A model generated the notes under the pieces. The model did not search any database, had not been told where the DNA came from, and saw nothing but the letters and a program-made list of their open reading frames with translations. A DNA stretch of 64,000 nt from Octopus vulgaris (lineage: Eukaryota): assembly GCA_951406725.2 (NCBI GenBank), contig OX597819.1:38626001-38690000 (forward strand). Reading direction: 5' to 3'. This document shows, piece after piece, positions 3,918 through 54,132 of the stretch (within the stretch, counting starts at the first letter, position 1; every line of letters starts with the position of its first letter). A program made the position numbers and the translations under genes.

Positions 3918-3959
<42 letters not shown>

Positions 3960-4051
3960 ACATTAGCACATAAATACAAATATATATATACAGAACACAC
4001 GTTATACTTACATATCCGAACGTATATTTGTATTTATGTGCTAATGTGGTA

Positions 4052-4112
4052 GGTTCAACTGATGAAAGCAGAGCTTATTTGAAGCAAAGCTAGAAATCCA
4101 GGATCTTGAATT
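4052..4112 (+). ncRNA. Type-I hammerhead ribozyme-like motif in a small foldback element
   Basis: ttcaa-CTGATGA-a-agc...gct-a-GAAA-tccagga-TC-ttgaa: stem I, core, stem II, short stem III and cleavage triplet AUC in type-I order. Confidence 0.65.
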
Positions 4113-4119
4113 ATCCAGT

Positions 4120-4158
<39 letters not shown>

Positions 4159-9595: not shown

Positions 9596-10089
9596 TAATG
9601 GTTTCAAATTTTGGCACTAGGCCATCAATTCCAAGGGAAGATGTAGTGGAGAGGGTTAGTTGGGTACAGTGATCTCAATATTTGACTAGTACTTTATCTT
9701 GCTGACCCTGGAGATATGAAAGGCAAAGTTGACCTAAGTGAAATATGAACCCAGAATATAAACAGACGGACAGATGTAAATACATACATACATACATACA
9801 TACATGTAAAGGCATGTGGATGAGTGGTTAGGGTGCTGAGTTCATGATCATAAGGTCATGGATTTGAAATCCTGGGCAAAACAGCACATTGTCTTCTTGA
9901 GCAAGGCACTTCATTTATATTGCTGCTGTCCACTCATCTGAAAATGAGTACCAACTGAATGATACTTATTTATCCAGGAGCAATGCAAGGCAAGACCTAT
10001 TTCAGTGAGATTTGAACTTCAAGCATATAGGAGGACTATAGCTAAATTTCATGTTAAGTTACATGGTATCAGCAGAGAAAAAAATATGG

Positions 10090-10800
10090 AAAAGATGGGG
10101 GTGGTAGCAGAAAGAGAAGTGGTAGAAGATAAAAATGGAGGCAAAGGAGGAGGGGAATGAATATGATAATGATGTTGAAGATGAGGAGGAGGAGGAGGCA
10201 GAAGACAAGGATGAGGAGGACAAGGAAGATGAGGAAGGCGAGGAAGAGGAAGAAGGGGAAGTGGAAGAGAGGGAAGCAGAAGCAGGAGAGGAAGTGGAAG
10301 AGGCAGAAGACAAGGATGAGGAAAAGGCAGAAGAGTAGACAGAAGATGAGGCAGAAGAGGAGATAGATGAAATGGAAGAGGAGATAGATGAGGCAAAAAA
10401 GGAAGAAGATGAGGTGGAAGAGGAGGCAGAAGTGGAGATAGTGGAGGCAGAAGATGAGGCAGAAGAGGAGGCAGAAGAGGAGGAAGAAGATTAGGCAGAA
10501 GGGGAGGAACAAGAGGAGGAAGAGGAAAATGAGGCAGAAGGGGAGGAATAAGAGAAAAAAGAGGAAAATGAGACAGAAGAGAAGGAAGAGGAAAATGAGG
10601 CAGAAGGGGAGGAAGTGGTGGAGAAGAGAAAATGTGAGGGAGACCAAAAGAAAAAGAGCAGAAAATGAGGTGGAAATGCATGAGGATATGTAGAAGTAAA
10701 AGCTGAAGAAGACTTAAAAGTGGATGAAAAGGAAAACAAAAGAAGCAGAAAGAAAACATAAGAAAGAAGAATACTAACAAAACAAAACAAAAAAAGCAAG
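10090..10800. repeat. Purine-rich (GAG/GAA) low-complexity tract
   Basis: About 700 nt of degenerate GAGGAAGAAGAT units. Confidence 0.9.
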
Positions 10801-12437
10801 ATATTGTCATTCTTTGAGAGAGAAGTTGTATAATATCAACTGATTTTCATTTTAGATGATTTGAATAAGTAGAAAAATGGTGCAGATCAAACGGATTCAA
10901 CAATAAAAATAGTGTATGGTTTCAGAGAAGATATTGAGATAGATATTGGGATTGGAAAATGCTTTAATTCTGTCAATGATAAAAAAAAAAAAAAAAAAAA
11001 AAAAAAAACTGAAACAAAATAAAACAGAGTGAAAAGTAAAGGAATAAAATTACAAGAGAAAAGTTTATAAGAAAGGAAATTAAGGATAGTTCTAAGTACT
11101 TGGGGTAATTTGAATTTGGTGACTAGCACAAAAAATATGTAGAGAAATTGAAATACAAAGAGAAGAATAGTTTTAGTAAATTGAAACTACTATTAGAATA
11201 AAAGCTGCTTGTTAATGTTATTAGTAACTTTATATTACTGAAAACTGATTTTTTTTGATTTGTGTGTATGAATAGTCTCGGCAAATACCTTCTGTTATTA
11301 CTATACAAACCATCCCTAATTGCAGCTGAAGCTAATAGAAGACACTAATTTAAGATGCTGCACTGTGAAACTGAACCTGAAACCACATGGCTGTCTGGTT
11401 AAGAAGAAACCTTCTAAACCATACAAGCATGCTTGCACTATTATAACTTACCTATTTCTTTACTACTCACAAGGGGCTAAACACAGAGAAGACAAAAAAG
11501 GACAGACAAACGGATTAAGTCGATTATATCGACCCCAGTGCGTAATTGGTACTTATTTAATCGACCCCCAAAAGGATGAAAGGCAAAGTCGACCTTGGCA
11601 GAATTTGAACTCAGAATGTAGCGGCAGTCAAAATACTGCTAAGCATTTCACCCGGTGTGCTAACATTTCTGCCAGCTCGCCGCCTTATAACTTACCAAAT
11701 TCACTTAAGTGATTTCATATACAAGAACTGAATTTAAAAAGTTGATGGTTTGAAGCACCAAGTATGTTTTTCATTCTTGGCAAAAATCTTCAAATTCTCA
11801 CTGATCAAGTTTACCTAAGTTTGTAGGGCTTCCATCAGTTAATATTGACCATGCATCTGCAGGCAAGTGCAAGATTTTTTTGGGGAGGAAGACTAGTAGT
11901 TATCCATGCATGCAAGTCTCCATGCTCCACCTACCAATACTTATCCAAGGGAAAGGCTTCCAACTTGAACCTATACAGTTTGGCACCTGTGTTGCCACAG
12001 AGGTTTGCTGTCAAAATGTAATGAGCTCCTTGCCTAACCTGCTAATAGTTCCACCAATCCAACATCTTGGATTGGTGCTTTATTTTATTAACTCCAAAAG
12101 TATGAATGGCATAGTTGACTTCAGCAGGATTTAAATCTGGAGTGAAGACAGTTGGACAAAATACTGTGAGGTATTCTATCCAACACATTCACATGTCTAT
12201 ACTGTAAAGATTTTACAAACCCATGAATGTTTCTCATATATAGTTTGAATATGGGCACCCCTCACTACTTCTTGAAATATTTCTTTCAAGAGGTGATGTT
12301 TACAGAATATGGGAGGTAAATTTCTACCTTAATATAATCCTTTCTACTATTGGCACAAGGCCTGAAATTTGAGTGAGTGAACTAACTGATTACATCAACC
12401 CCAGTGTGCAAATGATACTTATTTTACTGATCCTGAT

Positions 12438-19635: not shown

Positions 19636-19770
19636 CGCGCAATCATGCAAAACAAAACCAAGTAAACAATAAATTCCAACAGTCCACCAACAAATAAATT
19701 GAGGTATTTGTTTCCAACCAAGTTTGATATCTTTAGTGAAATACCGTAGTAACCAAGGGCTGCAGTAAAC
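19636..19770 (-). CDS. SLC22-like gene, coding exon 5 (TM7-TM8)
   Basis: ttctag|G...CG|gtaagt. Encodes FTAALGYYGISLKISNLVGNKYLNLFVGGLLEFIVYLVLFCMIA(R), with the typical YYG.S and L.GN.YLN...G..E motifs. 135 nt, phase 2/2. Confidence 0.94.
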
Positions 19771-43701: not shown

Positions 43702-44337
43702 TTTTTCTATTCCTGAGCATTATACTAATACATCTGTTTGTTTTCTACACCACCTGTCTTCGTCATTTGTTTTTTTCATAAACTCTCCCTATATATATAT
43801 ATATATACACATGTGTTATGTGATTCACAAAATAATCCCTGCACAACAACAACACACAGACTCACATACACAGAAGGTTCTTTGTTATGGCTGGTCAGAG
43901 AGTGACCGTTGGTTTTGCACCTATAAAGCACTCAGCTGACTTGTCAGACTCAAATGGCTTGTGGCATAAAAACCCCAGCAAGTTGCCTATGTGGTTGAGA
44001 GGCATGAAAGCAATGGCAGCTCATTGACTGTCCATAACAAACAATCTTCCAAATATTACTGCTGTAATGTTTTAGAACTACTAACTGATATATGTATATA
44101 TGAAAGAAACTGTTGTATACAGTGCTCAGGTGCACTACAACTAAGAAAAAAATTTATTTTGTCATTATATTCACTGCGGTGTTATTCTGACCATATCGCA
44201 CGAGGAGTTTTAAGGTGGGCAATTTAAACTGGTCATGTGCATACGTGCATATATATGTATGCATACGTTCATATATGTAGGTATATGGTATGTTGTGTAT
44301 ATATATATATATTTGTATTTATGTGCTATCTGAGTAT

Positions 44338-44396
44338 ATTCCACTGATGAAGGCAAAGTGTTTCTTATGCAAAGCCAGAAATCTGGGATCTGGAAT
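44338..44396 (+). ncRNA. Type-I hammerhead ribozyme-like motif (paralogue of the 4.06 kb motif)
   Basis: attcca-CTGATGA-a-ggc...gcc-a-GAAA-tctggga-TC-tggaat. Stems covary with the copy at 4052-4112. Confidence 0.68.
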
Positions 44397-44681
44397 TGTC
44401 CAGTAATTTTTTGCTAGTTTATTTTGTCTCTTTGTCTTCTCTCCTGGTGCTGTATGAACATTTAATGTGGTTTTAGAGTCAAGTTTTGACTGCTATTTCC
44501 AGTGTGGTGGTATCTCTTAGATACCCTAAATCATAATTTTAAATAATTATTACCTTTGAAAGGTTTTTATTCCCATGCTGGCCACCTGATAAGATTGGTA
44601 TTTAAATATCAATCGTATCTTTATTTATATGAAATATAATAGATACAAATGAAAATTTTAGAAAAGAAACAGAAATCTTAC

Positions 44682-44912
44682 CTGGATACAAATTCCTGTT
44701 AAAAAACGTAGAACTGAGAAGATTTCATAGTGTTGGACATGAGCTGCAATTGTTCCAAGAACAATGGGAATATAAAGGCAAATTAACATCACAGGCTTTC
44801 TACCAAATTTATCAGCCAAGAAACCAAAAAGGAGACCACCAACCATGACTCCAAGAAAATAAATGGTTACCACCAGTGAACTCATATAGGAACGGTTACA
44901 TATTAGATCCCA
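44682..44912 (-). CDS. SLC22-like gene, coding exon 2 (TM2-TM4)
   Basis: tttcag|TGG...CAG|gtaaga. Encodes WDLICNRSYMSSLVVTIYFLGVMVGGLLFGFLADKFGRKPVML...LRFLTGICIQ, with the SLC22 WDL(V/I)C motif and MFS motif A (G.LADKFGRK). 231 nt, phase 0/0. Confidence 0.95.
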
Positions 44913-51899: not shown

Positions 51900-53400
51900 C
51901 ATGCGTATGTTTGCATACATACCCACACACTCGCATGCATCCCTACCCACATACATACACGCACACCTACTCACACACACACATACACACACACACATAC
52001 CCGCACACACACACACATACATACATACACACACATACCCACTTCAGACATACACACACACAGACATACACCCATACACTCACACTCACATGCATACACA
52101 CACACACATACACACGCACACGTACACATACACACACACACACACCTACATACATACATTACACTTGTATACACACACACTTACATTCATACACACACAC
52201 ACCTACACAGCCATACCCTCACTCAGACACACACATCTACCTACACACACACACAAACACACATTGACTCACACCCATACATACATACATCTACACACTC
52301 ACGCCTACACACATACATACACACATACATAAACACACACACATACACATACACACACATGCATATACTTATACACATGCACACACACACACATACATAC
52401 ATACACCCATATACATACACACACACATACCTATACTCACATACATACACACAGACATACACACATACACACTCACACAAACATACACAACACATACTTA
52501 CACACACACTCACCTGCACGCGCACACACATGCATGACAAACACCCATACACTCACACTCACATACGCACACACCAACATAAACACGCACACGCACACAC
52601 ACACCTACACTCCCACACACATACACACGCACCTACATACACACACGCACGCATACACACGCATACACACATACATTACACACGTACACACACACCTACA
52701 TACACATGCATACACACACACACACAAACATGCACGGACACACCCAGACATACATACATACACCTATATACACACGCCCACACACCTACATACACACACA
52801 TATACACACGCCCACACAGCTACATACACACACATACATACACACATACACGGACACACCCATACATACTTACATACATACACCTATACACACACGCCCA
52901 CACACCTACACACACACATGCATACACACACACATGTACGCACATACACACACATATATGCACATACATATATACCCACACACATGCACACACACACACA
53001 TACGCACATGCATGCACGCATGCACACGCGCACACCTACACGCATACACACACACACGCACGTACACATACATACATACACACACGCATACATACACCCA
53101 TACACATACATGCATCCTACACACACATACATACACACTCACACATACATACACACACGCACTCACTCACACACCTGTATGTTCGCGCACACACATGCAC
53201 ATACACACACTTCCCCACACCCACACGTACATACATACACACTCATACACATACACACACACACACACACACGGACATACATCTATGCACACACATATAT
53301 ACACACATACTCACATACATTCATCGGACACACTGCCACCCAGACATACACACAGACACACTCACACATCCACACACACACATACGTACGCGCACACTCG
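51900..53400. repeat. Degenerate (CA)/(CATA) low-complexity array
   Basis: Source of the His/Thr-rich spurious ORFs. Confidence 0.95.
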
Positions 53401-54132
53401 CAGGCGCGCGCACACACGCGCTTGCGCCGGTTCGCGCACGCATGCGCGCCGCATGCACCTCGCCCTTGGACCCGACGAGACCTCCCGCCCGTTCCTGGGA
53501 TGTCGCTTGTCGTTGGGTTTTCCCACGCCCGTCTCCGCGGGACCACTCTTCCATCTTCCCCTCCGCTGGAGTCCTTTTCCTTAACCCCCCCTTTTTCGTT
53601 ACACACACGCGCACACATATACACACATTGCTTAAACATATACATTACTCTTACACACATTCAATCTACTCGCCATTAATACTACCACGACACTGGACAC
53701 ACACACACACTACTACTCAACACACGCTGGCACGCTACATACGCCCCCACCCCTTCCCCTCCCTCCCTTCCTCCTTCCTCCCTTTTCTTACTACTGACCT
53801 TTGTCTGCTATGCTGCTGCTATGCTGACCACCGTCTCGCCCTACCTCACACGCCTACACACAGACGCACACACTAACACATACATATATTTTTTGTTTTT
53901 TTATCTCGCCTCACACACACACATACACACACGCACACGCACACACTCACACATACACACACATCTGTTGCGTTACCAACCTTGTCTCCACTCTTTTGCC
54001 TTTAAAAACCCACTTTGCTCTTGTTATCGTAAACATCCGCCTTTCACCATGTGTAACTCCTAAACACCAGTCGTTTTTTTCTCTATCTCCGTTGCCCGCT
54101 CTGGGATCTTTCTTTCCTCTCTCTTCCTTCTT

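Follow-up and report, generated by a model that had tools for sequence, protein, structure and literature searches.

The window (the whole 64-kb stretch of octopus DNA analysed here) was scanned on both strands for the hammerhead core together with its three helices, and the sole full matches have their C3 at 44344 and 4059, both on the plus strand. The 44 kb site lies in a complete monomer of a repeat that starts ~45 bp into the intron following an exon of a minus-strand MFS-family gene, and is antisense to that gene. The 4 kb site lies in a truncated copy. Features at both sites are listed below.

44152..44638, plus strand: complete circularly permuted monomer of the non-coding repeat, ~487 bp, clade A; flank 3.5% off the clade consensus
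44338..44343, plus strand: 5' strand of helix I, 6 nt; 44342 is paired to 44392, as C-G here and as A-U or U-A in other clades
44344..44350, plus strand: core C3-U4-G5-A6-N7-G8-A9; N7 is U, C or A across subfamilies
44351, plus strand: optional 5' A, readable as inserted after A9 or as the 10.1 partner in an A·A mismatch; missing in about half of the family
44352..44376, plus strand: helix II overall; inner 3 bp formed by 44352-54 with 44374-76
Within 44352..44376, plus strand: 3x3 purine internal loop of helix II, then a 4-bp outer helix (44358-61 with 44367-70) and a 5-nt loop
Within 44358-61/44367-70, plus strand: two private G·U pairs in outer helix II of the 44 kb copy
44377, plus strand: near-fixed extra A between C11.1 and G12
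44378..44390, plus strand: G12-A13-A14-A15.1, palindromic helix III (44381-44389, variable centre) and U16.1-C17
Between 44390 and 44391, plus strand: predicted cut of the 44 kb copy
44391..44396, plus strand: 3' strand of helix I, followed by a U that is the candidate loop-1 U
44552..44625, plus strand: 3'-terminal module with hairpin 44588-44619; common to two sister families and a preferred 3' end of insertions
4023..4123, plus strand: clade-B copy truncated just past the hammerhead, in (TA)n; its C3 is at 4059 and its predicted cut follows 4105
3952..4022, minus strand: inverted 5' arm of the 4 kb insertion, a Penelope-type inversion
44682..44912, minus strand: host exon of the MFS/sugar-transporter-family gene (Pfam MFS_1, E 2.5e-12)

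The type I hammerhead core (C3 U4 G5 A6 N7 G8 A9, G12 A13 A14 A15.1, U16.1 H17) is present in type I order, and the 10.1-11.1 Watson-Crick pair directly between A9 and G12 is absent. Judged from sequence, the motif is a predicted type I dimer hammerhead short of one consensus feature. A covariance model built from 91 copies gave strong matches in the window at the 44 kb and 4 kb sites only; a weak match at 19671-19744 (E 0.14) is not a family member. Searching the two sites against Rfam returned no hammerhead at the gathering score and none at E<=10, and minimum free energy folding of the two stretches in isolation was no better than shuffles (z 0.58 to -0.91).

Re-reading of the sequences together with the both-strand scan confirmed the description of the two copies given in the original prediction. 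Stem I is ttcca/tggaa in the 44 kb copy and ttcaa/ttgaa in the 4 kb copy, stem II is ggc/gcc versus agc/gct, and CTGATGA-A, A-GAAA and ATC are common to both. The two compensatory pairs reported there are borne out, with stem I being 6 bp long rather than 5, and a third double change was overlooked: the outer part of helix II shows A-U versus U-A, a change masked in the 44 kb copy by two private transitions. The shared 3' flank, tccagt, is the point at which the 4 kb copy is truncated. The differences between the copies are inherited clade characters, because the copies belong to two large clades. Also overlooked was that the motif is part of a mobile repeat of the retrozyme type and that its helix III is palindromic, as in dimer-type hammerheads.

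A first look in the same genome (2.8 Gb) yielded 1358 family candidates for the 44 kb site and 1115 for the 4 kb site, of which 40 were scored from each set. Copies matching the hammerhead pattern genome-wide number 494 with an A after A9 and 504 without, ~1,000 in total (controls 3 and 2); the A/A pattern is therefore not due to chance, with 494 matches versus 3 for the reversed control. The monomer is 476 nt in a real head-to-tail dimer (locus L016) with a recurrent junction, no ORF was found in the repeat unit, and local GC is 0.34. The repeat thus has several features of a non-LTR retrozyme, namely a small, non-coding, low-GC unit with a type I hammerhead, and copies arranged head to tail. 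On their 5' side, copies run into the preceding monomer and never into a reading frame.

Among 49 pattern-found loci (one non-family locus excluded, two overlapping locus pairs counted twice), an inverted piece occurs at 20 and more than one unit, as dimers or partial dimers, at nine; no long tandem arrays were seen among the loci examined. Measured from C3, the 3' ends of 159 copies fall near +200 (n = 50) or near +300 to +320 (n = 56), and 18 copies continue into the next unit. The insertion ends that were viewed adjoin AT-rich or (TA)n sequence. Partial tandems with inverted, 5'-truncated arms are the insertion pattern of Penelope-like elements (PLEs) (PMC8557442; PMC4209133), and the repeat has such insertions. 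At one locus (L145/L146, G000:C1:44683518-44684037), clade B and clade C2 hammerheads face each other 473 bp apart, which suggests insertion into or beside an older copy.

We collected 159 distinct copies and built a tree (FastTree) from the columns on the 3' side of the ribozyme alone, for the 143 copies whose flank was long enough. Clade A has 55 copies, including the 44 kb copy, clade B has 40 plus five basal copies, C1 has seven, and C2 has 36; the 4 kb copy, too short to be placed, has a B-type sequence. In helix I, clades A and C1 have C-G at the second pair, where clade B has A-U and C2 has U-A. In helix II, the first pair runs from G-C through G·U to A-U inside clade B, clade C has G·U at the second, and the outer helix II pair is A-U in A and C and U-A in B. 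Between clades the 12 core positions are constant; N7 and the middle of the helix III palindrome are variable. Between clades, 0 of 12 core columns and 27 of 209 flank columns differ, a contrast that alone is not significant (P about 0.19, by hand).

Pairing is kept in all seven clade-level changes over the 11 pairs of helices I-III (simulation P = 3.9e-4), and adding the outer helix gives nine changes over 15 pairs, again with pairing kept (simulation P = 4.9e-5). The simulation placed the same number of changes randomly at the flank transition rate; it is based on consensus sequences and a star tree, and the tested structure was drawn from these same sequences. In a separate pair count on 77 distinct rows, the covarying stem I pair was CG in 32, AU in 21, UA in 20, and another combination in four, and both sides had changed in one of nine pairs of helices I and III, to which the tool was limited because MAFFT misregistered helix II in clade C. 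Given the three consensus monomers, RNAalifold found helices I and II and the outer helix without prompting. The arms of helix III are invariant, and covariation support within the family is absent for this helix. G·U intermediates occur, as expected for an RNA on the plus strand, and unpaired intermediates were also amplified, such as C·A in stem I of several clade C copies and U·U in outer helix II. Outside the ribozyme, hairpins 44507-44526 and 44588-44619 have paired changes in clade B. The latter, terminal hairpin keeps its closing sequence in the sister families while its stem is different, and is a candidate signal for the copying enzyme.

Once inserted, copies decay. Two of 21 incidentally found copies could not be parsed owing to a damaged core, seven of the other 19 have a core change, and changes in these 19 affect nine of 228 core positions versus 126 of 2051 flank positions. 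Selection would therefore have acted on the source elements, and inserted copies, including the antisense intronic one at 44 kb, are probably inert. Within-clade decay among the top BLAST hits is biased and was excluded from the evidence. The patterns above support a hammerhead that was under structural selection in its source elements. The original prediction argued the same from two copies, which alone are insufficient; the flank-based tree and the simulation are what uphold the claim.

The A/A juxtaposition at the base of stem II had been proposed to define a variant hammerhead. Genome-wide counts separate it into two features. The A/A configuration (A after A9 and A before GAAA) has the 494 matches given above, and for the 504 matches that have A before GAAA and a different nucleotide following A9, 95 of the 100 rows listed have G there. 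A nucleotide other than A before GAAA was found 49 times (control 4), and by eye 19 of these are family members (14 with G, four with T, and one with a deletion). Helix III is specified slightly differently in each of the three patterns, and the A/A rows include a few from outside the family. The 3' A is thus present in ~98% of pattern matches, whereas the 5' A is missing from clade C, from 11 of 54 parsed clade A copies, and from one of 40 clade B copies. The part of the proposal that holds concerns the near-fixed 3' A; the 5' A corresponds to an optional nucleotide between 9 and 10.1 that is a published feature of PLE hammerheads (PMC4209133). Contigs from four runs with four organism labels gave no difference of at least 5% at the core or at 44377, by a method that favours similar copies. 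Loss of an ancestral C-G at 10.1-11.1 by CpG decay was considered and rejected; G precedes GAAA in only 14 pattern matches, scattered over the clades.

We compared this junction with published hammerheads. Active natural core variants in PMC3088659 have insertions 6a, 13a, and 2a/2b and also a U10.1·U11.1 mismatch; the text covered there has no 11.1/12 insertion and no A·A, and its filter rejected 10.1-11.1 mispairs. The consensus of PLE minimal hammerheads has C11.1 directly before GAAA (PMC4209133), whereas the octopus repeat has an A between them; AGAAA occurs in one of 56 GAAA cells of supplementary Fig. S3 of that paper, in a row that is not assignable. The text of the papers covered, to which the work of Lunse et al. 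on variant PLE hammerheads does not belong, describes neither a hammerhead family in which an A is fixed between 11.1 and 12 nor any cephalopod retrozymes.

Two sister families share the 3'-terminal module. The younger (L202:6560-7000; L209-L233) has 2283 candidates at ~96% identity, a unit of ~456-470 nt, a full 4-bp helix II that covaries, and a palindromic helix III; CCCC precedes GAAA in 20 of 23 copies, and in other rows the helix II base is G·U or A·C. The older (L260:1173-1560; L265-L288) has ~78-80% identity among copies and, in 27 of 28 copies, an A after A9 and an A before GAAA, mostly with U3; the covariance model gave weak matches to it (E 0.005-0.013). The flanks of the sister families are barely alignable, and the 6-bp helix I, the core, an interrupted helix II, and the palindromic helix III are kept. 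All three families have a U after the 6-bp helix I and four nucleotides between the loop A and G12, these being GCCA here and TCCA and CCCC in the sister families. A 5' U in loop 1 and a 3' A in loop 2 are the published signature of the loop 1-loop 2 contact (PMC2632901), which these U and A positions match at the level of sequence. A further short hammerhead family (L101:1480-1600; L186-L200; 319 candidates) has a palindromic helix III, inverted insertions, and C directly before GAAA.

Intact PLE frames of 781 aa with reverse transcriptase (RT) and GIY-YIG domains occur at many loci in the genome. At L201 and L202 (G000:C16), an apparently recent two-ORF PLE family has this frame and an upstream ORF of 330-360 aa, and carries near its 3' end a U3-A8 minimal hammerhead unrelated to the motif of the repeat. 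No autonomous PLE with the hammerhead or 3' module of the repeat was found in GIY-YIG loci, in eight 8-kb regions, or in a search with the 3' module, and the repeat lacks an RT + GIY-YIG ORF between pseudo-LTRs. Matches to PLE protein were found by tblastn at four of 180 loci, none collinear; L155, L066, and L149 were rejected as PLE-linked copies because they are not collinear. An apparent PLE link of the older sister family at L260 consists of two unrelated repeats joined by a chance insertion.

We propose that a tandem source RNA would fold two hammerheads through the palindromic helix III, and that cleavage after C17 would yield unit-length RNA, probably circular. A PLE reverse transcriptase/GIY-YIG protein would then copy this RNA in trans, through the rejoined cut, into AT-rich targets. 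Copying in trans would yield permuted, more-than-unit, and inverted inserts (after PMC7229834, PMC11167929, and the 2026 preprint, bioRxiv 10.64898/2026.07.22.740005). Helix III is an odd palindrome in which a forced 3-bp monomer hairpin is at +2.4 kcal/mol and the intermolecular duplex at -6.8 and -7.6, so that the duplex is favoured and cleavage would be expected as dimers in tandem transcripts. We infer that the extra A occupies position 11.1 and preserves the spacing from the loop A to G12. Opposite another A or nothing, it would likely hold the register of loop 1 and loop 2, since on the 3' side of helix II the distance from the loop-2 A to G12 stays at four nucleotides.

Three raw RNA runs from one study (~6% of each) had no pile-up of read beginnings or ends at 44390. 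Matching reads (200-283 per run) are mostly <95% alike and in both orientations, and represent relatives expressed at a low level; RNA ends are hidden by cDNA libraries and circles, and this type of library cannot show circles. Truncated copies do not begin at the cut more often than expected either (2 of 59 5' ends in a 5-nt bin, about 1.8 expected), and neither test lends support to cleavage. Circular-fold z scores of -6.3 and -6.9 were rejected as evidence for circular RNA; an alternating purine-pyrimidine tract inflates z, and the fold is branched.

On balance, the motif is probably a type I hammerhead within a ~476-nt repeat that is likely a PLE-copied non-LTR retrozyme, with sources likely needing the ribozyme fold. 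A competing account, which we regard as unlikely, is that the repeat is a PLE-mobilised non-autonomous element whose ribozyme was crippled by the extra A, with helices kept for protein binding or as ancestral features and cleavage dispensable. Published mutagenesis has the 10.1-11.1 pair as all but essential, U·U being the best of the mismatches (PMC3088659), insertion of a lizard PLE in vitro is independent of cleavage (PAc; PMC11167929), cut-site ends appear neither in RNA reads nor in truncated copies, and the invariance of the core is not significant alone. A crippled ribozyme does not, however, fit with compensatory changes that arose in lineages all having the extra A, with the same junction persisting in the older sister family, or with an N7 that varies while its neighbours do not.

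That the copies are 5'-truncated ends (pseudo-LTRs) of an unsampled full-length autonomous PLE, and not an independent retrozyme, seems improbable. Extension on the 5' side always enters the previous monomer and never an ORF, PLE protein is not collinear with the repeat at any of the 180 loci searched, the one apparent link, in a sister family, is a chance insertion, and the intact PLE bears its own, unrelated hammerhead. In favour of such an origin are the PLE-type inversions, the (TA)n neighbours, and the 5' insertion and palindromic helix III of PLE hammerheads (PMC4209133). We give very little credence to paired changes produced by DNA-level template switching in inverted repeats, or by chance, with no selection on RNA. 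Palindromes and inverted insertions abound in the element, and its terminal hairpin is also double-changed, but ~50 nt separate the arms of stem I, which lie on either side of the core, G·U is kept on the plus strand only, and one pair has three Watson-Crick states (simulated P about 4e-4).

The preferred reading, a PLE-copied retrozyme, places the repeat close to animal non-LTR retrozymes (PMC7229834; bioRxiv 10.64898/2026.07.22.740005), which likewise have a small, non-coding, AT-rich unit with a type I hammerhead, are dispersed as monomers and dimers, and coexist with PLEs. The ~476-nt unit is slightly above the 150-450 bp reported there, the octopus insertions are mostly truncated or inverted with no long arrays seen, and the octopus hammerhead has A·A or a lone 3' A in place of U·U and a two-tier helix II. 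Like the octopus motif, axolotl HHR_Amex2 is mismatched at the helix II base; its U·U motif cleaves, with 22% cleavage as a monomer and more as a dimer (PMC7229834). As in PLE minimal hammerheads (PMC4209133), there is a nucleotide between 9 and 10.1, a palindromic helix III, many consensus families with compensatory changes, and opposite-strand pairs 100-700 bp apart. Unlike them, the octopus repeat is without a linked RT/EN ORF, and in its 6-bp helix I and 9-nt palindrome it comes nearer to canonical motifs. The repeat defines no new element class.

More tentatively, and as a possibility we would not yet count on, this genome and its relatives may host a radiation of retrozymes with an active hammerhead that dispenses with the 10.1-11.1 pair, has a spacer A, and is invisible to Rfam. 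If the motif cleaves, the most conserved pair of helix II would be replaceable by an unpaired A in a natural family of ~1,000 copies, and hammerhead searches and descriptors requiring the 10.1-11.1 pair would miss whole retrozyme families. The natural variants at 10.1-11.1 (G-C, G·U, A·C, A·A, and a lone A) would amount to a ready mutational scan of that position, and the sister families would provide a natural series for dimer versus monomer cleavage too.

Elsewhere in the window, positions 10001-12000 and 52001-54000 have strong GC skew (+0.36 and -0.67, respectively) and are probably simple-repeat tracts.
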